From: Candidatus Helarchaeota ASGARD archaeon Hel_GB_B | GTDB taxonomy: Archaea; Asgardarchaeota; Lokiarchaeia; Helarchaeales; HEL-GB-B | Direction of reading: 5' to 3' | DNA length: 28,395 bases | NCBI GenBank assembly: GCA_005191425.1 | Contig: SUPR01000041.1 | Span: 1 to 28,395, forward strand | In this document: positions 5,451 to 26,820 of the stretch, in pieces | Layout of the letters: each line of letters starts with the position of its first letter | Numbering within the stretch: position 1 is the stretch's first letter | Notes under the pieces: model-generated | What the model was told of the DNA's origin: nothing | What the model saw: only the letters and a program-made list of their open reading frames with translations | Databases searched by the model: none | Program-made: the position numbers and the translations under genes

Positions 5451-6767
5451 TTATTTTCTTAGTTCTTTAACTTTTTTCAAAATTTTTTCTAAAATTTCTT
5501 TATCAGTGAGTATATTTTCATTTGGTGGTTGCTTAACTTTCTTCATTCTAATAGGTACTGCGTCCATTCTATATCCAGTCCCTTCAGCTTCTATCCCTGC
5601 CATAGCTGCTGGAAATACGACATCTCCAATTAATGTTGTTGGAGTTTTATGGGGGTCTATTACAATTAGCGGGATTTTACCAAGCCATTCTGATGAAACT
5701 TTTGGAAAATTACTTATCGGGTCTGAGGATATTATAAGTGCTGCATCAGTTTCTTTTCTGATTAATATATCGTTTGCTGAAAATTCTCCTGGATTATATC
5801 TTGGATACCCCCTAGCAAAATTAATTGAATATGGATATCCGGTCTGCCAAGTAAAAACTACATTAGCACCACATACATTCCAGTGTCCACGCATTGGTAA
5901 AATTATCCATTTAGAAAATGAGTTTAAATCTTTAACAAGTAATACTGCTGAATCTATATTTCTATGTTTTCCAATTGTTTGAGTTAGTCCCATTCCGAAA
6001 AAGAGTACCCCAAACTGAGCATTTTTCATAATATTAACTAATTCGATGATTTTTTCCTTTTTTACCCCTGCTACTTCTTCAGGTATTTCAGCCCCCTTCA
6101 AAACAGCTCGCATTGCACTCAAAAGTTCAAAATCCTTTCCTTGTTGTACCTGAACAAAATCTGTCGCCAATTTTGCTGTATCTGTATACCTAGGGTCAAT
6201 AACAATTAATTTTCGTTCCATAATACCTTTTTCACGGAAATATCCTCTAATAAATGTAGAATATCTACTCAAATGTCTTGGGTGCGCATTTGCAGGATTA
6301 CTACCTACATACATAATTACATCTGCTCGGGCTTTAATTTCTCCAAGAGTTGCACCCGATGCACCTACATCTTGTTCAGCTAAAATCGTTGGTCCATGGC
6401 ATACTGATGCTGTATTATCAAGAATAGCACCAACTTCTTCAGCTAATTCTATACCTACTGCTTGGGCTCCTGCCTCTGTAGATGAAAATCCATAAAGCAA
6501 TGGATAATCTGCATTTATCAATATCTTAGCTGCTTCATTAATTGCAGTTTCAATATCTGTTTCTACCAATTTTCCGTTTTTTCTAATCATTGGAGCTTGT
6601 ACACGGTCGTCCAATTCATTTGATGAAAAAAATTTTCTAGTACCTATTGTACATGCGTTTTCTACTTCTACAATCTCATTGTTTTCGTCCACTTTTAAAA
6701 CAATATCATCACATAAAGAACCACAAAATGGACAAACACAGTCCGTATATTCTTTAATTTCTCCCAT
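5451..6767 (-). CDS. fwdB: Formylmethanofuran dehydrogenase subunit B (Mo/W-bis-pterin catalytic subunit)
   Basis: CPFCGSLCDD Fe-S motif, SVCHGPT metal-ligand motif (the Cys codon is TGC, not a Sec UGA), HPRHLSRYS, PMRGHWNVCG, YRMDAVP. The W versus Mo isoform cannot be told from sequence. Confidence 0.93.
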   Translation of the reverse strand: MGEIKEYTDCVCPFCGSLCDDIVLKVDENNEIVEVENACTIGTRKFFSSNELDDRVQAPMIRKNGKLVETDIETAINEAAKILINADYPLLYGFSSTEAGAQAVGIELAEEVGAILDNTASVCHGPTILAEQDVGASGATLGEIKARADVIMYVGSNPANAHPRHLSRYSTFIRGYFREKGIMERKLIVIDPRYTDTAKLATDFVQVQQGKDFELLSAMRAVLKGAEIPEEVAGVKKEKIIELVNIMKNAQFGVLFFGMGLTQTIGKHRNIDSAVLLVKDLNSFSKWIILPMRGHWNVCGANVVFTWQTGYPYSINFARGYPRYNPGEFSANDILIRKETDAALIISSDPISNFPKVSSEWLGKIPLIVIDPHKTPTTLIGDVVFPAAMAGIEAEGTGYRMDAVPIRMKKVKQPPNENILTDKEILEKILKKVKELRK

Positions 6768-6788: not shown

Positions 6789-7178
6789 TTATGATTTAAA
6801 ACTTTCAGCTATTTCTTGAGGGCTTAATACTTTTTTACCTGGTGCTGGTTCTATATTACAAGAAATCCCTTTGAATGATGGAGTTCCAATCCCTGTAGTA
6901 TCTTCATTTATTACCTGATTTGCCCAAATTCCCATTGGAATAAAAGCAACCCCTTTATGAGGTGCATTTGGGGATTTAATTGCCCTAACAATAACCTCCC
7001 CAAAATCTGTCTTTATAGAAACAACTGAGCCGGTCATTATATGAAGTTCTGCCATGTCATCGGGGTCAAGTTCAACAATTGCTCCAGCTCTGGTCATTTC
7101 ATCTGACAATTTACTTCCTTCATAAGCTCTTCCTTGGTCTATAGTCCGTCCGGTTATTAAATTACATTTCAAGACCAT
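6789..7178 (-). CDS. fwdD: Formylmethanofuran dehydrogenase subunit D
   Basis: LITGRTIDQG, FIPMGIWAN and GTPSFKG motifs. It lies directly upstream of fwdB, with AGGAG before the ATG. Confidence 0.92.
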   Translation of the reverse strand: MVLKCNLITGRTIDQGRAYEGSKLSDEMTRAGAIVELDPDDMAELHIMTGSVVSIKTDFGEVIVRAIKSPNAPHKGVAFIPMGIWANQVINEDTTGIGTPSFKGISCNIEPAPGKKVLSPQEIAESFKS

Positions 7179-8026
7179 TTTATTATTCTCCTAAATCATA
7201 AACTAGCTTAGATGGTTAACATGATTATTCGATATTAACTTCATCGAAATTTTTATTATTTATTTAACAAAATCTTATCTATTTTAATCAAGATTTTATA
7301 GGCTTATACTTGAATCATCATTCTATCAATAAAATAAAAATTTTTTCGTATTATTCTTTTTTTGTCTATTTTCAATAAACAAAAATGTGCTTTTAAATTG
7401 TTCTAAATAAGTCTTCAATTGTCTGCTTTTTTTTATTTTGTAGGATATTTTAATTGATTATATTAATAGAAATGCGAGTTAGAACTTTCTGCATTTTTAT
7501 AATATTAAAATTTTTCGTATTTATTTATTATTTTAATAGTATTTTTAAAGTCCGTTCTTAATTTATAATTGAACTGCTTTTAATATCTTCATAATTTTTG
7601 ACTTTTAGTTAAAAAGATTTTGATTTCGCGAATTAATTTTAGATCATAACCATTTTAAACAATTCTTGCAATTAATTTTTAGCAATACTAAAAATGTTTT
7701 ATAATTAAATTTCAATTTTTATAAAAGAGATTATCTAAAAACAAATTTAAAATCAAAATATTACTGAATATTATTAGCTATCTACTTATTATTGGCTTTA
7801 TTATCTTTGGATTTTTGATGTATTTATATTACATTATGGTAAGTAATAAAATTAAATATAGGACAAAATCAATTTCTCTGTATAAATCCTTAAAAATACT
7901 ATTTACCATTGTAGTTCCCCATATTTTTAACCATTTTTTTAAAACGGAAATTAAAATAATTAAAAAGACTTTTTTAATTAATAATTTATATAAATAAATT
8001 CTACTAAAATTAATAGGGTTTTTATT

Positions 8027-8362
8027 ATGAGTAAAAAATTATTAAGCTTTTTGGGAACTCGGAAATATATAGAATCTTGTTATTCATATAATGGTAATGT
8101 TTCAAAGCCTAATCATTTTATTCAAATGGCTCTAATAGAATTAATATGTAATAATTGGGATGATGGAGATCAGATAATCATATTTTTAACTGAGAGAGCT
8201 AAAAATATGAACTGGCTAGGAAAAAACGCAAATCCCGGAGCAAATTTTGAAATAGGACTTCGTGAAAGATTAGAACATTTTAAAAAAAAATATCATTTAA
8301 AGTGGTTGATATTCCTGAGGGGAGAACTGAAAATGAACTATGGGAAATTTTTGAAAAAATAA
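8027..8362 (+). CDS. csx1: N-terminal part of a Csx1/TM1812-family CARF-HEPN protein (frameshifted)
   Basis: MSKKLLSFLGTRKY..SCY is a typical start for this CARF family. A -1 shift in the A9 run at 8282-8290 joins it to the downstream ORF. Confidence 0.8.
   Translation: MSKKLLSFLGTRKYIESCYSYNGNVSKPNHFIQMALIELICNNWDDGDQIIIFLTERAKNMNWLGKNANPGANFEIGLRERLEHFKKKYHLKWLIFLRGELKMNYGKFLKK
8282..8290 (+). other. A9 homopolymer / slippery site at the csx1 frameshift
   Basis: The zero frame reads TTT AAA AAA AAA TAT. One extra A, or a -1 shift on A_AAA_AAA, gives F-K-K-K-I-S-F-K-V-V-D-I-P-E-G and a continuous 410-aa ORF from 8027 to 9258. Confidence 0.75.
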
Positions 8363-9258
8363 TAGATGTCATTAACCCCCAAGATGAAATTTATTTTGAT
8401 ATAACACATAGTTTTCGATCTTTACCCTTCTTAATATTGATAATTTTAAATTATGTAAGATTTTTAAAAGGTATAGAAGTAAATGAGATATTTTATGGGG
8501 CTTTAGAATCTTTAGGTACTATAAAAGAAATACTGAAAAATATACCCGTAAACGAAAGAATAGCTCCAATATTTAGACTTACACCATTTATAAATTTATT
8601 TGATTGGACTGTAGCAATTGAACGATTTTTACAAACAGGAAATGCCAATATGATAAGCACTTTAAGTAATCAAGAATTAAAACCGTTGCTTATTGAAACA
8701 AGTGGAATGATTGGTGGAAAACTTAGAAAACTTATAGGAGTAATAAAAGAATTCTCAGAAAATGTTTCTACTTGCAGATTTCCCAAATTTAAAAAAAATA
8801 TCGAAAGTATAATACAAATTATACCAGAAGCTGAGTCTGAGCTTGAAAAATTAAAACCATTCAAACCTTTGTTCAACGAAATAAAAACTCAGTTTTATAA
8901 TTTCCAAAATATAGATGATATTTCAATCGGAATAAATATAGCAAAATGGTGTTTAGAAAGAGATTTTATTCAACAAGGATATACTATTTTAAGGGAAACC
9001 ATTATTAACTATGTTATTATAAAAATTTTAAATAAATATGATTTAAAAGATAGAATAACCAGGGAAAATTCAGAGAAAATGTTAAATACTATGGATAAAG
9101 AAATTCCGGAAGAGATTATAAACCTTTGGCGTGAAATTATTGAATATAGAAATGATATAAATCATGCTGGATTAAGTGAGCAAAATTTACACAAATATAA
9201 CGATTTAAAAAAGAAATTAAAAGATTTTATTTTAAAATTTGAAAATTATAATAGATAA
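8302..9258 (+). CDS. csx1: C-terminal part of a Csx1/TM1812-family CARF-HEPN ribonuclease
   Basis: CARF motif DITHSFRSLP (8398-8427) and HEPN RxxxxH motif RNDINH (9148-9165). The GTG at 8302 has no evident RBS. Confidence 0.88.
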   Translation: MVDIPEGRTENELWEIFEKIIDVINPQDEIYFDITHSFRSLPFLILIILNYVRFLKGIEVNEIFYGALESLGTIKEILKNIPVNERIAPIFRLTPFINLFDWTVAIERFLQTGNANMISTLSNQELKPLLIETSGMIGGKLRKLIGVIKEFSENVSTCRFPKFKKNIESIIQIIPEAESELEKLKPFKPLFNEIKTQFYNFQNIDDISIGINIAKWCLERDFIQQGYTILRETIINYVIIKILNKYDLKDRITRENSEKMLNTMDKEIPEEIINLWREIIEYRNDINHAGLSEQNLHKYNDLKKKLKDFILKFENYNR

Positions 9259-9361
9259 AATTTAATAAATTTATAATTAAAAGCAAATTTCAGGAAATAT
9301 AGACTAATTTGAAATTCTACAATTATTTTATTAAAACAATTTTTATTAGATCATTTGTATT

Positions 9362-9634
9362 TTATTCTTCTACCATTTGAAACGCACCTGTTGGACAGAT
9401 CTGGACGCACCTATCACATTCAAAATCAAAATCCTTATTATAACAGTATTCTGGGTGTAATAATGTATTGATCCCATTGATTACCCTCATTATTAATTCT
9501 CCCTTCATTTTTGATCTTGGGGGTATAATACCCTCTTTCAATCTTGGTTCAATTTGGAGGTTTATTGGGCATACCAAAATACACTGACAACATCCGCTAC
9601 ATTTATCTCTATCAATTTTTAGTTTTTTCATCAT
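9362..9634 (-). CDS. 2x[4Fe-4S] ferredoxin, FwdG-like
   Basis: CSGCCQCILVCP and C-x8-CDRCVQICP motifs, plus an MRVING linker similar to FwdG. The likely start is ATG 9634 (MMKKLKIDRDKC) rather than 9688. Confidence 0.8.
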   Translation of the reverse strand: MMKKLKIDRDKCSGCCQCILVCPINLQIEPRLKEGIIPPRSKMKGELIMRVINGINTLLHPEYCYNKDFDFECDRCVQICPTGAFQMVEE

Positions 9635-9822
9635 AAAAAAAAATCCCGAACTTTTTATAAATTTTAGCTCGGATTTTGCACCTATCAAAATTTAGTCATA
9701 ATTTGAACGGTATTTTAAAATTGTAATTTAAATTCAATTAATGTGTCTTAATCGGACAATGAATAATGTTTTTAAAATTAACCTATTAATTTTTTATAGA
9801 GCATAAATTAAAATGTTCCTAA

Positions 9823-9832: not shown

Positions 9833-10768
9833 ATGGAACAAAAAAAAATTGTTTTTCTAGGATTAGATAATGCCGGTAAAACTTCATTTATAAGAGCATT
9901 TGATGAAAATTATAATGAAATTCAAAATTTGACACCTACCGTTCGGATAGAGCGGTCTAATATTGAAATACTGGACGTATCGATTTCTCGCTGGGATTGT
10001 GGCGGACAAGAGAAATTTCGTAAAGAATATCTTATGGAAGAATCTCAGGTATTAACTGAAGCTGATTATGTACTTTATTTTATTGATATTATGGCTGAAG
10101 ACAGATATGATGAAGCATTAGGGTATTTGAAAGACATAATTGAAGCCTATAAATTAACTGGTTTTATACCACCTTTCATGATTTGTTTACATAAAGCAGA
10201 TCCATCTTATATTGATATTGCGACAGTAAAAAAGAAGATGCTCCCTCGGTGGGAAATAAAAGATAGAGTAAACAGACTTACCGAGCGACTATCTAAACTA
10301 TTAACCGGTGTTAGTAATTCAATTAATTTAACATCAATATATGACCGTAATTCAATTTTAATAGCTTTTTCAAAAGTCTTGAAATCATTTACCCCCAAAT
10401 CCGAATTAATAGACCTTGTTAATGTAATACTTGTTGAATTTGTAAAGAAAAATGACCTTCTCGCATCTTCAATAATTGAAAGAAAATCGTTATTATATAC
10501 TGAATTTAGTGTTGACCCAAAATCTAAAGAATTGTTCTCTGCATTATTAATGAACGGACTTATTTTTTACGAAAATATACAAGTGGTAAAACGCATATTT
10601 AAAATGACTCTTTTGATTGAGAATTATCGCGTGATGTTTACAAGTTATATAAAAAACAATCGAAGATATTTCTTAACTATAATGGCAAGGCTTGAGTCTG
10701 ATTTAACCAAAATAATCGATGAATTTGAAACCAAATATTTTGATAGGATATGTACAATAGTTGATTAA
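9833..10768 (+). CDS. Rag/Gtr1-like small GTPase with a C-terminal roadblock-like domain (Asgard eukaryotic signature protein)
   Basis: G1 GLDNAGKT, G2 PT, G3 WDCGGQ, G4 HKAD, G5 TSIYD. HKxD and TSI[WY]D are Rag-type rather than the Arf/Rab NKxD. A C-terminal alpha/beta extension of about 125 aa follows. Confidence 0.85.
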   Translation: MEQKKIVFLGLDNAGKTSFIRAFDENYNEIQNLTPTVRIERSNIEILDVSISRWDCGGQEKFRKEYLMEESQVLTEADYVLYFIDIMAEDRYDEALGYLKDIIEAYKLTGFIPPFMICLHKADPSYIDIATVKKKMLPRWEIKDRVNRLTERLSKLLTGVSNSINLTSIYDRNSILIAFSKVLKSFTPKSELIDLVNVILVEFVKKNDLLASSIIERKSLLYTEFSVDPKSKELFSALLMNGLIFYENIQVVKRIFKMTLLIENYRVMFTSYIKNNRRYFLTIMARLESDLTKIIDEFETKYFDRICTIVD

Positions 10769-11127
10769 TCTAAATAAATTTCGTATCTGATAGAATATCT
10801 TTTAAAATACATTTAAAAAACTAATATATAAATCAAAATTTATTTATTAATAAATAAATATCTTTTAATACTTTGACAATAATGTATTTAACTGGAATTT
10901 CTTAGACATTAATAACTCTGTCCTTATTTTACTCAAATTTTTAAGAAATTTATGTCGAATATCTATCCTTTAATTATGAAAAAAATAATTTTCTAATAAG
11001 ACTAATTATTAAGTATTCGTATATCAAAAATAACTATTATATTGTTAACATAGATTTAATAATTAGAATTAATCTTTACATTACAAAAAATCCAAAATAA
11101 ATTATAATTTTTTATACTCAAGAAAGA

Positions 11128-13701
11128 GTGATTGGAGTTTTTACTATGGATAAAGAAAATTCGGAGAAAATAGCTGAAGAGGTATTAACAGAATTAGGGC
11201 TTAATGATACAGAAGTATTAGCGTATTTATCAATTACTGGTAGGGGTGCTGTAAGTATTGGTGAAATTTCGATTCATTCAAATGTTAAAGAAGTTGAAGC
11301 TGAAAAAATAGTAAGAAAATTACTTGATATTGGATTGTTAAAAGAAATACCTGGAAAAATACCGCGATTTCAAGCAATACCACCATACACTGCATTATTA
11401 AAACAATTAGATGAGTTTCAAAGTGAAATTTCTGAGTTGAGAGAACGAGTCCCACTGGAATTAAAAAATCAATTCTCATTATTTGTTGATAGTATGGGGG
11501 AGATTACTGGTCTTCAGGATTTTCTTGCTTATGTAAGATTAATTAAAGACGAAGTTCCGCAAGCAATGGTACAACAATTCAACAAATTTGAAAGTGAATT
11601 TGAGAAATTTAAGCAGATTGAGCAATTTAGTGATTTTATAAATACTATTAAAACTGAAATTCCAAAACAATTGTCAAATAAACTTCAAAATATGCAAAAA
11701 CAAGTATTATCCACTTCTGGACTTGAGAATTTTAGAGAATTAGTAAAATATTTAAAACAAGAAATTCCGGAACAATTACAAACTGAATTTAAAAATATAG
11801 AAACTCAAACAAAAAATGTTTCTGGATTTCAAAATATGTTAAATTTTATTAATAATGCAAAATCTTCCATACCTGATAAGATGATGTCGCAATTTAATGC
11901 GATAGAAGACGAATTTAAAAAAATTTCTGGTCTTAAGGATTTAAGAAATTTTGTTTCTGATTTAAGCAAAAATATTCCTTCAAAATTAGCAACTCAATTT
12001 AATAGTATTGAGAACGAAGTGAAAAAAGTAAGTGGAATGGAAGAATTAGCCAATTATGCAGCTCAATTAGCTACTACTATCCCAGCTAAAATGACTTCTG
12101 AATTTTCTGAAATTGATAATCGATTAAAAAATGTAAGTGAACTTGTTTCTTTCAAGGCTTTCATTCAAAACCTAAAAGAAAATATACCCCAAGAGTTGAG
12201 TTCTGAATTTGCAAAATTTAAAGAAGAGATTCAAAAAGTTAGAGGGAAAATAATCAACACTTCTCAAGAACAATTCAGTGAATGGCTCGCTATTATGGAC
12301 GATATTTTCAGAGATTATATCAACCAATTTATACAAGATATTGCTATTGGTGAGATTGAAAAATTAAGGTTATTTTTTGAAAAGCAAATCATTTTAGGAG
12401 TTACCAATATTTTGTCAAAAGTAGAAAACCAAGTAGTCCAAGCGTCCTCTAGTGTGTCTCAAGAATTTGAGCGCTTAAGAAAATGGCTTTCTGAAAATGT
12501 TATTAAAAGAGTTCAAATTGCGCTTTCGGAAGTTCAGACAAGTGCTACTGTAGTATCAACTGCGGTTGATCAAGGTATAAAAACGTTAGGTGATTGGTTT
12601 ACTGCCAAAGTCGTTAAACAATTAAGCTCCACGCTTTCTGAAATTGAAAAAGGAGCAAACGAAGCAGTTAAAAATATTGAGAGCAGTGTCGGGCATTTAA
12701 AAGAGTGGTTAACCAGTGATGTCATAAACAGGTTTACTGCAGCATTGAACGAAGTAGAACAAGGTTCTAATGAAGCTTATATGTCTGTAGAACAAGGATT
12801 CCAAAATCTTGAATCATGGTTTAGGTCTGAGGTAATTCAGAACATAACCACTGCTCTAGAAGAAGTTGAGCACGGAGCTGACTCTGCTACTGATCTCATC
12901 CAAAAGGAATTTGAAAAATTTAACTCTACAATTGGTGATAAAATTATCTCTACAGTTGACGAAATAATATCCAACTTATCTTCTCAAATTTCAGAAGCAT
13001 CTAAACTTGTTACTGAAGGTTTTGCTGGTTTAAAATCTCAGTTAGAAACTAATGTTGTAGAAACTGCAAAGACTACTCTGGCAAAAGTCGAGGAAAAAGT
13101 TGGTTCAGCTTCCGAAGTAATTTCTAAATCAATGGACGGTATGCGACAGACTTATTCTGATAAAGTCGTATCCGCAACTCAAAAAATGCTAGACGATGTA
13201 GCTGAAAGGATAAATCGATCTCAAATTACTATGTATTCTCTATGGGAACGCGCAAAATCTATGGTGACTTACAAATTTGATGAAGTTTGGTTTGTTATTG
13301 GGCGCGAGGCTGCTATTGCACAAATCAATGAAACTATTAGCAGAGTAAAAGCTAGAATTCTCATTGTAGCCCCAAGCTTAGAAGATATTGATATAGTGCC
13401 AATTCTAAGCACTAAATCTCATATAGCTGTTAGAATCGCGACTTATGTCGACCTTAATTCTCGAGATCATATGGATAGACTTCATAAACTAGCACAAAAA
13501 GAAAATCTACAAATCAGAAATTATCCCGATAAAAACATTTGGGGGATTTCTAGGGAAAATGAGGAGGTGTTTATTGGAGCTGTATCTGCGAGTACTGGCG
13601 AAATTGCCGGAATTGCATCTGTCATTGGTGAACACCAAAAAATGTTTGTCCCCATCTTGGAAGACTGCTGGTTAAAAGCAAAAAAGTATGTAATGAAATA
13701 A
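11128..13701 (+). CDS. TrmB-like winged-helix protein with a long helical-repeat insert and a TrmB-like C-terminal domain
   Basis: N-terminal LTELGLNDTEVLAYL...LLDIGLL...RFQAIPP matches the TrmB wHTH. The C-terminal ~145 aa (WFVIGREAAIAQINETISRVKARILIVAP) resembles the TrmB effector/PLD-like fold. The start may be ATG 11146. Confidence 0.7.
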   Translation: MIGVFTMDKENSEKIAEEVLTELGLNDTEVLAYLSITGRGAVSIGEISIHSNVKEVEAEKIVRKLLDIGLLKEIPGKIPRFQAIPPYTALLKQLDEFQSEISELRERVPLELKNQFSLFVDSMGEITGLQDFLAYVRLIKDEVPQAMVQQFNKFESEFEKFKQIEQFSDFINTIKTEIPKQLSNKLQNMQKQVLSTSGLENFRELVKYLKQEIPEQLQTEFKNIETQTKNVSGFQNMLNFINNAKSSIPDKMMSQFNAIEDEFKKISGLKDLRNFVSDLSKNIPSKLATQFNSIENEVKKVSGMEELANYAAQLATTIPAKMTSEFSEIDNRLKNVSELVSFKAFIQNLKENIPQELSSEFAKFKEEIQKVRGKIINTSQEQFSEWLAIMDDIFRDYINQFIQDIAIGEIEKLRLFFEKQIILGVTNILSKVENQVVQASSSVSQEFERLRKWLSENVIKRVQIALSEVQTSATVVSTAVDQGIKTLGDWFTAKVVKQLSSTLSEIEKGANEAVKNIESSVGHLKEWLTSDVINRFTAALNEVEQGSNEAYMSVEQGFQNLESWFRSEVIQNITTALEEVEHGADSATDLIQKEFEKFNSTIGDKIISTVDEIISNLSSQISEASKLVTEGFAGLKSQLETNVVETAKTTLAKVEEKVGSASEVISKSMDGMRQTYSDKVVSATQKMLDDVAERINRSQITMYSLWERAKSMVTYKFDEVWFVIGREAAIAQINETISRVKARILIVAPSLEDIDIVPILSTKSHIAVRIATYVDLNSRDHMDRLHKLAQKENLQIRNYPDKNIWGISRENEEVFIGAVSASTGEIAGIASVIGEHQKMFVPILEDCWLKAKKYVMK
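11443..12240 (+). repeat. About 7.6 protein-level repeats of 35 aa
   Basis: Units with [IV]P at positions 3-4 recur exactly every 35 residues from aa 106: ERVPLELKNQF, DEVPQAMVQQF, TEIPKQLSNKL, QEIPEQLQTEF, SSIPDKMMSQF, KNIPSKLATQF, TTIPAKMTSEF, ENIPQELSSEF. They are diverged at the DNA level. Confidence 0.85.
12373..13260 (+). repeat. Eight protein-level repeats of 37 aa
   Basis: aa 416-711. Four consecutive units start with Trp exactly 37 residues apart (WLSENVI, WFTAKVV, WLTSDVI, WFRSEVI). The flanking units keep the hydrophobic register, and the array ends where the C-terminal domain begins (13261). Confidence 0.75.
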
Positions 13702-13804
13702 ACTCTATCTTTTATTTTATTTAATTTTAACCTTATTTATTTTTTAATAAACATTATTTGACAATTAAATTCAAATAATTCAAATTTAATTTTAAAATGC
13801 TAAA

Positions 13805-16132
13805 ATGAAAAAACATGCGACCATTATTATCAGTGGTATTGTACAAGGCGTTGGGTTTAGACCATTTATCTATATGGTAGCAGATTCATTAGGACTAAAT
13901 GGTAATGTATTAAATATGGGCAATGCAGGAGTTAAAATAGAAATCGAAGGGGAAGAAGATATCATAAATGAATTTATTAAAAAGATTAGATCTGATAAAC
14001 CAAAAATTTCCTCAATTGACGATTTGACAGTCCGGTGGTCTGACCGGTTAAAAAATTTTCTCAATTTTAATATTTTGAAAAGCATTGACGAAAAAGGAGA
14101 AAGCCTTGTATTACCCCCTGATATAGCAATTTGCGAGGAATGCCTAAAAGATTTTCAAGATAAAAAAAATCTACGTTTTTTTGAATATCCTTTTATTGCT
14201 TGTGCTCAATGCGGCCCACGATTTACAAGTGTCATTGATCTTCCCTATGACCGAGATAGGACAACAATGAAAAATTTCCCATTTTGTCCAGATTGTGATA
14301 AAGAATATAAAACAATTGGAAACCGCCGATTTCATGCTCAAACTTTTGCATGTAGAAATTGTGGCCCAAAATTCACTTTAAAGGAAAAAAATGGTGAGAC
14401 TTTATCTACTAAAAACCCAATTAAGACTGCAATGCAACTTTTAGATGAAGGAAATATAATCGCTATTAAAGGAATTGGTGGAATTCATATTGCATGCAAG
14501 ACTACTTCTGACGATACTATCTCCAAACTCCGTAAAAGAAAAAAACGCATAGCCAAGCCATTTGCAATTATGTGTCAAGACTTTAAAACACTTCAAACTT
14601 TTGCTTCACCCTCCCAATTAGAAATTACTGCACTAACTTCCTTCAGAAGACCGATTGTTTTAGTTAAAAAGTCTTATGATTATTATCTTTCTGACCTAAT
14701 TGCTCCAGACTTAGACTCAATCGGCGTCTTTTTACCATACTCTGGGATCCACTATTTATTATTTAAATATACAAATGAACCCGCAATAGTCTTAACTTCT
14801 GCTAATCGGTCTGATGAACCAATGATAATTTCAAATGAAGTTGCACTAAGAAAGTTAAATGACCTTGCTGATTATTTTCTATTACATGACAGAATTATTT
14901 ATCAACGTGCTGATGACTCAGTATTAATTGTAAATCAAGGTATACCTACATTAATACGAAGGTCTAGAGGATATGTCCCTCAATGGATCAATACTCCTAT
15001 CAATATTGATGATGTGGTAGTTGCACTCGGAGCTGAAGAACGAAATACCGGGTGTATCTTAAAAAGAGGTCGTGCGTATTTTACACAGCATATTGGTAAC
15101 TTGACAAATATAGACCAATTTGAATTTGAGATAAGTGCTATTAAGCACCTTATGAAGCTAACTAGAACTCAAGATGCAAAAATTTATTCATGCGATTTAC
15201 ACCCCCAATTTTTAAGTACAAGACTTGCATTTGAACTAGCTAAAGAAAAATCCGCAAAAATTATCCCAGTCCAGCATCATTTTGCACACGCAGCCAGTTT
15301 AATGGCTGAACATAATTTAAAAGAGCCCATTATCTGTATTTCATGCGATGGTTTTGGTTTTGGTCTGGACGGGACTGCATGGGGAGGTGAAATAATTCTA
15401 AGTAATTATTCTAAAATGGAGCGCCTCGGGCATATAGAACAATATATGATGCCAGGCGGAGATCTTTGTACAAAATACCCTGTAAGAATGCTCAGCTCTA
15501 TTTTATCTAAAATTTTTTCATTTGACGAGCTTCGACTATTTATTAAAAATAAATATGTTAAATACCTTCCTTATAGAGAAAAAGAACTCGAAATTTTGAT
15601 TAAACAACTCCAGAACAAAATCAATCTACCCAAAACCACCAGTTGTGGACGAGTATTAGATGCGATCTCCGCACTTCTAGATATCTGTTATGTCCGTACA
15701 TATGAAGGGGAGCCTGCTATGAAATTAGAGGCTTTTGCGAGAAAAAGTGAACAAATAGAGCATATTTTAGAACCCCAAATACATAAAATTAATGGAAAAT
15801 TAGTATTAAATACAACGATATTATTTGAAGAATTAATAAATTCATTAAAAAATCATGTCAATAAAAGTATTTTAGCATACCAAGCTCAAGATTATATCAG
15901 CAGAGGGCTTGCCTCTATTGCAATAACATTAGCTGAAAAATACGATATTAAATTAATCGGATTCTCAGGTGGAGTCGCATTTAATACTATTTTTACTCAT
16001 AATATTAAAGAAGAAATCACTAAAAACGGTCTAAAATTTATTCAACATAGACAGGTCCCACCTGGAGATGGAGGAATTTCCTTAGGACAAGCTGTTATTG
16101 CTGCCTCAAAATTTATTAAATTTGAATTCTAA
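13805..16132 (+). CDS. hypF: [NiFe]-hydrogenase maturation carbamoyltransferase HypF
   Basis: Acylphosphatase domain (GIVQGVGFRPF), two Zn fingers (CEEC..CAQCGPRF; CPDC..CRNCGP), YrdC-like domain (KGIGGIH, TSAN), Kae1-like domain (DLHP, QHHFAH, PPGDGGISLGQ). Confidence 0.97.
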   Translation: MKKHATIIISGIVQGVGFRPFIYMVADSLGLNGNVLNMGNAGVKIEIEGEEDIINEFIKKIRSDKPKISSIDDLTVRWSDRLKNFLNFNILKSIDEKGESLVLPPDIAICEECLKDFQDKKNLRFFEYPFIACAQCGPRFTSVIDLPYDRDRTTMKNFPFCPDCDKEYKTIGNRRFHAQTFACRNCGPKFTLKEKNGETLSTKNPIKTAMQLLDEGNIIAIKGIGGIHIACKTTSDDTISKLRKRKKRIAKPFAIMCQDFKTLQTFASPSQLEITALTSFRRPIVLVKKSYDYYLSDLIAPDLDSIGVFLPYSGIHYLLFKYTNEPAIVLTSANRSDEPMIISNEVALRKLNDLADYFLLHDRIIYQRADDSVLIVNQGIPTLIRRSRGYVPQWINTPINIDDVVVALGAEERNTGCILKRGRAYFTQHIGNLTNIDQFEFEISAIKHLMKLTRTQDAKIYSCDLHPQFLSTRLAFELAKEKSAKIIPVQHHFAHAASLMAEHNLKEPIICISCDGFGFGLDGTAWGGEIILSNYSKMERLGHIEQYMMPGGDLCTKYPVRMLSSILSKIFSFDELRLFIKNKYVKYLPYREKELEILIKQLQNKINLPKTTSCGRVLDAISALLDICYVRTYEGEPAMKLEAFARKSEQIEHILEPQIHKINGKLVLNTTILFEELINSLKNHVNKSILAYQAQDYISRGLASIAITLAEKYDIKLIGFSGGVAFNTIFTHNIKEEITKNGLKFIQHRQVPPGDGGISLGQAVIAASKFIKFEF

Positions 16133-25860: not shown

Positions 25861-26820
25861 TCACCTCCTTTCTATTATATTTAAAACCAACCCCATTATC
25901 CTACCTACCAATTTCTTCCTAAACTTAAGCCTTTCTATTATCTCATCTACCAGCTCTGGATATTCTCTTACCGTGAAATAAAAGTTTAAAATTGATTTCC
26001 AGCGAGTTATACTCCTTTTTCCCTTAAATTTTATATTCGATTTAAGTGTACTAAATTCTTGTCTCACAATGTTCGTTGTAATACACTTTCCTCTAAATTT
26101 AGTGGCTATAACTTCCAGAATCTCAGCCACATTTTTCGGGGACCACCAAGTGTTTTTACATGATTGTCTTTTATATTATAATGATATGCATAAGTTGTAC
26201 ATATTTTAAAATAGTTTTTGGGGCATCTTTTTTTTATTTTTAATTATTATATCCGGATTATTTGTTTTGGCTTTTTTTTCTTATTTTTGGTACCCTTTTT
26301 TCGTCCACGTTTTTTATTACTTGTTAATTTGACTTCTTTTTTTGATATTCTTGTTATAAATGTATTTTCGAACTCTATCTTCGTTTAAAGCCAGCAAGAG
26401 ATACCAAACATGTCCATTAATTTTAATGGACGTTTCGTCGACTAAAAGAATATCACCAGAAATGGGTGTAGCCCATGCAAGCTTTACTTCGACTGAATTA
26501 TTGACAGATATTATTATTTCTTTTACAATAGTAGACGCATATAAATTAGAGCAATTAAAAGTCTGACTGATACGTTTTAAATCAATAGTCCCATTTTTAA
26601 AGAATTTAGTAATAGTATTACTAATTGATGGGATTAAATTTTTGAAAAAAGCACTGGTATGTGCATAGAAAGTCCTCCGGCAACTTTTGTAGGTATATTT
26701 TTAAGGATTGCCATGCACAGATGTATCGCGCCTACCTCGCTTAATACTACGCGAGTCACAATCATCAGGGAATCTTGGACATAAGACCGGGATTTTCAAG
26801 GATGCTATGATATCATTTAA
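25861..26820 (-). pseudogene. DDE transposase pseudogene
   Basis: From 26820 it reads LCPRFPDDC...GNP*KYTYKSCRRTFYAH (Zn-ribbon, TAA at 26701-26703), then ILLVDETSIKINGHVWYLLLALNED (first catalytic Asp at 26437-26439). A shifted frame gives KKRGRKKGTKNKKKK, and ORF 25861..26130 gives ITTNIVRQEFSTLK (region of the third catalytic residue). Confidence 0.8.

Follow-up and report, generated by a model that had tools for sequence, protein, structure and literature searches.

A csx1 gene split at an A9 run in a Candidatus Helarchaeota genome without a detectable type III CRISPR system

Csx1(TM1812) is listed among the CRISPR-associated HEPN families by Anantharaman et al. 2013 (PMC3710099). For the related Csx1-Crn2 protein, a CARF domain (residues 1-181), an HTH domain (182-305) and a HEPN domain (306-444; catalytic residues R401, N402 and H406) have been described, and cyclic tetra-adenylate (cA4) bound at CARF assembles a composite RNase site (PMC11317161). 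Runs of nine A are of the length at which RNA polymerases slip, as exemplified by T. thermophilus dnaX (PMC1088944). Here we analyzed a csx1 gene at positions 8027-9258 of a 28,395-nucleotide stretch of DNA (the window; GenBank contig SUPR01000041.1, assembly GCA_005191425.1) from Candidatus Helarchaeota archaeon Hel_GB_B, in which an A9 run splits the gene into two overlapping reading frames. The window corresponds to contig C120 of a metagenome-assembled genome (MAG) of 3.54 Mb, with 182 contigs, 28% GC and 93.7% completeness. The frameshift is genuine and fixed in all sampled strains of the species, and we consider it probable, with moderate confidence, that csx1 is a young, fixed and possibly leaky pseudogene without a detectable activator.

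Family and reading frames of the split gene

The gene is a TM1812/TIGR02221-type Csx1 with the domain order CARF-HTH-HEPN. The C-terminal frame alone matched the TIGR02221 (cas_TM1812) profile at 86.7 bits against a cut-off of 76.25, over profile positions 108-216 of 218; the missing first ~107 positions correspond to the upstream open reading frame (ORF1). The same frame matched the TIGR02549 DxTHG motif model at 39.4 bits (cut-off: 21), and the match obtained in a six-frame family search spans the frameshift. A Pfam-A search of both halves gave nothing useful, the copy used being older than the family model PF27248. We collected about 200 homologues, nearly all of 405-450 aa, the full-length ones being single ORFs whose source names are “TIGR02221 family CRISPR-associated protein” or “Csx2 family” (the Csx2 label coming from JGI). 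The best full-length homologues are 58-59% identical, the named ones deriving from Methanothermobacter, Methanobacteriales and Asgard MAGs, and identity to intact archaeal members, among them proteins of a Methanothermobacter tenebrarum MAG and of Asgard MAGs, is 44-59%. A 340-aa homologue (P0019) was considered as a second frameshifted lineage and ruled out, as it is cut by the end of its contig, which starts with adapter-like sequence.

When the two frames are joined, the protein aligns end to end with the full-length homologues and keeps 71 of the 73 columns conserved at ≥85%; both deviations are conservative (I for L and F for L). The HEPN motif YRNDINHAG (R-x4-H) is essentially invariant, with R, N, D and H invariant in 62 homologues. 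An AlphaFold model of one homologue (P0006, 59% identical), computed with a 62-sequence alignment, reached a pLDDT of 93.5. In this model the frameshift position falls in a surface loop that joins a helix (77-88) to a strand (93-98) midway through the CARF fold; relatives have a variable linker at the break, with four additional residues. The best PDB match of the P0006 model in a fold search was Marinitoga Csx1-Crn2 with cA4 (8y7g; E 3e-18, TM 0.77), followed by Sulfolobus islandicus Csx1 (6qzt; TM 0.61) and then by Csm6 proteins. Only the fold search succeeded, a phmmer search of a full-length homologue against PDB sequences having returned no relevant match. An earlier note on this DNA, made from the letters alone, had called the gene a Csx1-type CARF-HEPN nuclease with neither half otherwise damaged; the TIGR02221 and DxTHG models, the homologue alignment and the fold match of the homologue support the first part, and the end-to-end alignment with its retained columns supports the second.

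ORF1 (8027-8362, 111 aa) reads the A9 run at 8282-8290 as KKK, giving HFKKK through the run. The second frame is open from 8284 to its stop at 9256-9258; its upstream limit, a TAA at 8281-8283, shares bases with the run. One added A, or one base read again (a -1 slip), yields a joined Csx1 of 410 aa with the junction HFKKKISFKVVDIPEGR and, after the run, the continuation ISFKVVDIPEGR. Since homologues match frame 1 up to F85 and the other frame from the following Ile, the shift site lies inside the A9 run, exactly where the earlier note had placed it. The motifs SFLGT (8045-8059), DITHSFRSLP (8398-8427) and RNDINH (9148-9165) are all present in the sequence as had been claimed. A slippery heptamer, A_AAA_AAA, is formally contained in the run, and a -1 shift on it gives the continuation found in homologues. 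Runs of this length are not rare in this 28%-GC genome, which has 284 A9/T9 runs, 49 of them (strand-wise counts) inside long open frames; two others in the window (9635-9643 and 9840-9848) lie inside unbroken ORFs. Gene callers annotate the C-terminal frame as a separate gene. For annotation, the 111- and 318-aa “genes” reported in every MAG of the species should be treated as a single frameshifted Csx1 locus.

The break and its variation across strains

Related loci were found through exact look-up of both ORF products, and single-nucleotide polymorphisms (SNPs) were called by megablast. Thirteen further contig records, derived from different samples and assemblers, carry the identical break (2 JGI metagenomes, 6 NCBI MAGs, 4 ENA assemblies and 1 Logan assembly); the ENA assemblies bear MEGAHIT-type and SPAdes-type contig names. 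Identity of the related loci to the window is 99.3-99.99%; several SNP haplotypes can be distinguished among them, both ORF products occurring in several sequence variants, with zero indels in the gene. The length across the A run is constant in all 15 loci, which represent no fewer than 10 assemblies. As read from consensus contigs, every sample has the broken gene as its majority allele, and no intact allele was found among 5.8 billion protein clusters, where the next protein is 58% identical.

A homopolymer is a classic site of error and the source is a MAG, so that a true A10 and an intact gene were considered, as in the earlier note. Because the identical break recurs in independent assemblies, samples and SNP haplotypes, random assembly error is excluded: the JGI, MEGAHIT-type, SPAdes-type and Logan assemblies agree on one length, and the polymorphism pattern of the gene differs from that of its intact neighbors. 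We regard a sequencing or assembly error as extremely improbable. The locus accordingly illustrates how independent metagenome assemblies can tell a genuine, fixed frameshift in a homopolymer from an error of assembly.

The same data bear on phase variation, in which slippage during replication would make A9 an “off” and A10 an “on” state within populations. A hypermutable long homopolymer in a gene with no other damage would suit such a switch; the 15 loci, read from consensus contigs that show just the majority allele, nevertheless have a single length, and the protein collection holds no “on” allele. The sole variant of the run is a substitution, T8281A (F85L), present on two contigs (three loci), which turns A9 into A10 while leaving the total length unchanged and the frame still broken; the same change abolishes the TAA that bounds the second frame on its upstream side. 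Phase variation is therefore, in our assessment, very improbable.

The SNPs within the gene are four nonsynonymous and zero synonymous: 8046 G/C (S7T), 8232 A/G (N69S), 8281 T/A (F85L) and 9037 T/A (Tyr to Asn). The flanking genes used for comparison (uvrAB and the fwd neighbors) have 2 nonsynonymous and 12 synonymous SNPs, and the difference between 4:0 and 2:12 was significant by Fisher’s exact test (p=0.0049, with four SNPs in the gene). Given 234 synonymous and 996 nonsynonymous sites, the probability that four of four SNPs are nonsynonymous is 0.43 under neutrality and 0.008-0.045 at an omega of 0.1-0.2. SNP density in the gene (3.2 per kb) is closer to that of the upstream spacer (4.7 per kb; 4 in 848 bp) than to that of the neighboring coding sequence.

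The distribution of these SNPs was also weighed for a functional product of the C-terminal ORF alone (318 aa from GTG 8302, with half a CARF domain, HTH and HEPN) or of reassembled fragments. The 975-bp C-terminal frame has one SNP, a singleton on a contig whose name records 2.6x coverage, whereas the N-terminal piece (257 bp) has 3 and the spacer (848 bp) has 4, and gene callers annotate this ORF as a gene; the density difference is, however, post hoc and rests on four SNPs. Judged from the homologue model, the cut would drop beta1, beta2 and three helices of the Rossmann-like sensor, which makes CARF folding and ligand binding unlikely. No ribosome-binding-like sequence precedes GTG 8302, and of the shorter family matches the one checked (P0019) merely ends at a contig edge. 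We hold a functional C-terminal product or reassembled protein to be improbable.

Neighborhood and the search for an activator

The neighbors of csx1 include uvrA, uvrB, fwdB, fwdD, a ferredoxin gene, a Gtr1/RagA/Arf-like GTPase gene, hypF and ABCE1, among others. The gene stands alone between fwdD and the ferredoxin gene and not within a cas locus; fwdB and fwdD lie upstream, in agreement with the placement among fwd genes in the earlier note, and the AT-rich spacer of about 850 bp described there measures 848 bp at 16-20% GC. Table 1 lists the features of the locus. Searches for RNA families, repeats and gene remnants in the spacer (7179-8026) detected none, and repeat, Rfam and promoter/terminator scans of 7100-9450 returned nothing beyond AT-rich background, the sigma-70 promoter model being inapplicable to archaea.

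Table 1. Coordinates of the csx1 locus features in the window
Feature	Position	Strand	Evidence
N-terminal CARF piece (85 native residues plus KKK; beta1 motif SFLGT)	8027..8290	+	Alignment to the first ~88 residues of full-length homologues (TIGR02221)
A9 run, three Lys codons in frame 1, frameshift site	8282..8290	+	Length constant among the 15 related loci
Out-of-frame tail of ORF1, 23 codons plus stop, YHLKWLIFLRGELKMNYGKFLKK	8291..8362	+	Without counterpart in homologues
Second frame: rest of CARF, helical HTH-like middle domain, HEPN	8284..9258	+	TIGR02221 and TIGR02549 matches
AT-rich spacer upstream of csx1, 848 bp, 16-20% GC	7179..8026		Composition
2.2-kb segment: spacer, csx1 and 103 bp downstream	7179..9361		Missing between fwdD and the ferredoxin gene in same-genus genome G001

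No cas genes were found in the window, and the statement that it holds no cas10, other cas gene or array is borne out by its gene content and by a k-mer scan. The whole MAG was searched with the profiles TIGR02578, TIGR02577, PF22335, PF03787, PF01867, PF18144 and PF00990, none of which gave a match above threshold; Csm1, Cmr2 (Cas10), RAMP, Cas1, SMODS/CD-NTase and GGDEF proteins were not detected, nor was a Cas10 palm domain above threshold. This search for Cas10 and other oligonucleotide cyclases had been proposed in the earlier note, and it found none in the 93.7%-complete MAG, which lends no support to the suggestion that csx1 may be activated in trans by a distant type III system or by a non-CRISPR cyclic-nucleotide source. 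When the MAG was searched by tblastn with 19 cas-locus proteins from homologue loci (Cmr1-6, Csx3, Cas1-8 and accessory proteins), cas genes were not significantly matched, and just generic helicases and one CARF-like ORF on contig C2 came up; the same set, including Csx3, found nothing on contig C120. The k-mer scan for CRISPR arrays was negative in the window and in the MAG, all five repeat regions that it flagged being protein-coding tandem repeats (leucine-rich or low-complexity). A Cas10 palm domain was present in 0 of 7 genomes of the order.

The CARF-like ORF on contig C2 (7196-7867, minus strand, 223 aa) matched, with a tblastn E of 2e-13, a protein of a Promethearchaeia cas-like locus that itself has a weak “CARF_Card1” match. 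It lies amid housekeeping genes (a comB-like phosphatase and CDC48), its only Pfam match is a weak one to plectin/S10, and it may be an orphan CARF-like protein.

Intact homologues elsewhere sit in type III-B/I-B or I-D-like loci, often directly after csx3. That of the Methanothermobacter tenebrarum MAG follows csx3 in a locus combining III-B (Cmr1-6) and I-B, and another follows csx3 in an I-B locus. One genome of the order (G004) has an intact 450-aa family member that adjoins Cas3, an HD-domain large subunit, Csc2 and Cas6. This TM1812-type Csx1 (in the region 1-14000 of contig C193) stands by a Csa3-like regulator and a type I-D-like set in a genome without a detected Cas10 palm domain, so that a CARF-HEPN effector would here adjoin a system not known to make cyclic oligoadenylates.

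Genome G001, a sister species in the same genus, has a gap of ~180-200 bp between fwdD and the ferredoxin gene, compared with 2,183 bp here: in G001, fwdBD is matched up to C11:11260 and the ferredoxin gene from 11443, and csx1 is missing. The two species thus differ by an indel, and from this comparison the spacer and csx1 appear either to have been inserted in this lineage or to be what is left of something that the sister species has lost.

Two other features of the window were recorded. The Gtr1/RagA- and Arf-like small GTPase gene, two genes downstream of csx1 (9833-10768), has the A9 run at 9840-9848 in its start region, where it is read in frame; such GTPases are a eukaryote-signature protein type in Asgard archaea. 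At 10806-10853, in the AT-rich intergenic sequence after this gene and before an 857-aa ORF, a few tens of bases are absent in three related contigs (L005, L009 and L019), a small indel or a change in repeat copy.

Slippage, pseudogenization and comparison with known systems

A second split at a poly-A run was found on contig C145 of the MAG (12406-14609, minus strand), where a ChlI-type AAA ORF (355 aa) abuts a VWA ORF (377 aa) at an A10 run (13535-13544) in a -1 relation. The loci L037 and L042 were compared with the relatives L043, L045, L047 and L048. Five genomes of the order, each from a different genus, retain the ChlI/VWA split at an A9 or A10 run although the flanks have diverged, and two genomes of another (third) family have a fused ChlI-VWA ORF of 752 and 772 aa. 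The C145 split probably represents, in Asgard archaea, the poly-A recoding that Antonov et al. 2013 (PMC3711429) described for magnesium-chelatase genes. One genome thus offers a contrast between a conserved magnesium-chelatase-like break and the non-conserved break of csx1. Further frame pairs meeting at homopolymers (≥9) were noted at C45:25215-27033 (T10 at 26173-26182, a MatE-like membrane protein), C13:8021-9243 (A9 at 8565-8573, an ISL3-family transposase) and C8:5277-6069 (T9 at 5685-5693, an unnamed membrane protein); these could be frameshift pseudogenes, recoding sites or plain adjacent genes.

The earlier note had proposed a dose-limited or phase-variable effector. For dose limitation, the A9 run would be maintained by selection, a fraction of transcripts or ribosomes giving full-length Csx1 and limiting the dose of a toxic RNase that answers an unrecognized cyclic-nucleotide source. 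The perfect -1 heptamer A_AAA_AAA and a run of the length at which RNA polymerase slips (PMC1088944, PMC3711429) are consistent with this proposal, as are the fixation of the frameshift, the lack of further lesions and the C145 site, kept as A9/A10 in five genera, which indicates that the machinery probably slips. The split of csx1 is, however, confined to one species, and under the criteria of PMC3711429 a frameshift seen in just one species is classed as an indel or a pseudogene. When run length was compared in orthologues, the three intact homologues read as DNA had no run longer than six A at the site. The weak hairpin that had been proposed directly after the run is not borne out, as minimum free energies were no better than those of shuffled sequences (z = +0.4 to +1.1); a downstream structure is a requirement of ribosomal frameshifting and not of RNA-polymerase slippage. 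Three of the four nonsynonymous changes affect the N-terminal half that a full-length product needs, and the cyclase search of the MAG was negative. Neither form of the proposal is upheld by the invariant run length, the unconserved site, the missing structure, the 4:0 polymorphism and the missing cyclase, and we consider selected slippage unlikely. The fuller version, that an Asgard archaeon without type III CRISPR keeps a low dose of toxic Csx1 through A9 slippage, by the slippage-prone decoding that the C145 site suggests, in answer to an unrecognized cyclic-nucleotide source, seems to us quite unlikely. If it were true, csx1 would exemplify an effector of CRISPR type whose expression is limited by slippage, in a lineage that lacks type III CRISPR, and would make the orphan CARF sensors of Asgard archaea still more puzzling.

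A recent pseudogene, which the earlier note had named among the mundane alternatives, fits best with the fixed lesion, its restriction to one species, the unconserved run and the exclusively nonsynonymous SNPs. The intact ancestor would have been a CARF sensor with an HTH domain and a HEPN RNase, of the kind activated by the cyclic tetra-adenylate of type III CRISPR systems. One A would then have been lost from a poly-A tract of lysine codons, most simply by replication slippage from A10 to A9. Relaxed selection on csx1 is likely because Cas10 or another cyclic-oligonucleotide synthase, cas genes and an array are undetected in the species, and the gene would not yet have acquired a second lesion. 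RNA-polymerase or ribosome slippage on the A9 run could yield a minority of full-length protein without being selected. Both this direction of the mutation and the loss of function are probable, as is a leaky minority product on the A9 run; a rescue of function by such slippage is plausible.

Several observations weigh against reading csx1 as a pseudogene. Apart from the frameshift the gene is pristine, its catalytic and ligand-site motifs all intact, and the break must therefore be very recent or tolerated. All four amino-acid polymorphisms are at variable or tolerant positions of the family. Three of the four SNPs fall in the 86-codon N-terminal piece (257 bp) and one in the 975-bp C-terminal frame, so that there may be residual constraint on the C-terminal part. 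Defense genes are often relaxed even when functional, which makes the comparison with uvrAB and fwd a generous one, and CRISPR loci often escape binning in a MAG that is 93.7% complete. In E. coli, frameshifting on A9 cassettes in reporters reached 40% (PMC3711429), and the conserved C145 A9/A10 site suggests by analogy that this lineage slips on such runs. Slippage may thus supply substantial full-length Csx1; from the C145 site, some full-length protein is probably made as a by-product.

Compared with described systems, csx1 stands out neither by its family, which is known, nor by its lesion, which is of a common kind. It resembles Csx1 TM1812/TIGR02221 in its above-cut-off profile match, DxTH(G/S) motif, length, domain order and an RNDINH motif that is invariant across 62 homologues, and differs in being frameshifted and alone between fwdD and the ferredoxin gene, with no csx3 upstream. 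With Marinitoga sp. Csx1-Crn2 (8Y7G/8Y6Z) and SisCsx1 (6QZT) it shares the CARF-HTH-HEPN order and the R-N-x3-H motif, whereas sequence identity is just 15-20% and the Crn2 ring-nuclease fusion is missing here; both proteins are cA4-activated ssRNases, which is presumed by analogy to be the mechanism of the intact ancestor. The one-base shift exactly in the A9 run, the AT-rich genome, the otherwise intact frames and the fixation recall the poly-A indel pseudogenes whose phenotype is rescued by slippage in transcription or translation (Buchnera and Blochmannia cases cited in PMC5009743; Baranov et al. 2005, PMC1088944; Rockah-Shmuel et al. 2013, PMC3812077). The host is, however, a free-living archaeon and not an endosymbiont, and rescue is conjectural here. 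With the programmed -1 poly-A recoding of magnesium chelatase (Antonov et al. 2013, PMC3711429), the csx1 site has in common the type of slippery sequence and the direction of the shift; the magnesium-chelatase-like site is kept across genera with diverged flanks, whereas the csx1 site belongs to one species and is missing in the three intact homologues read as DNA.

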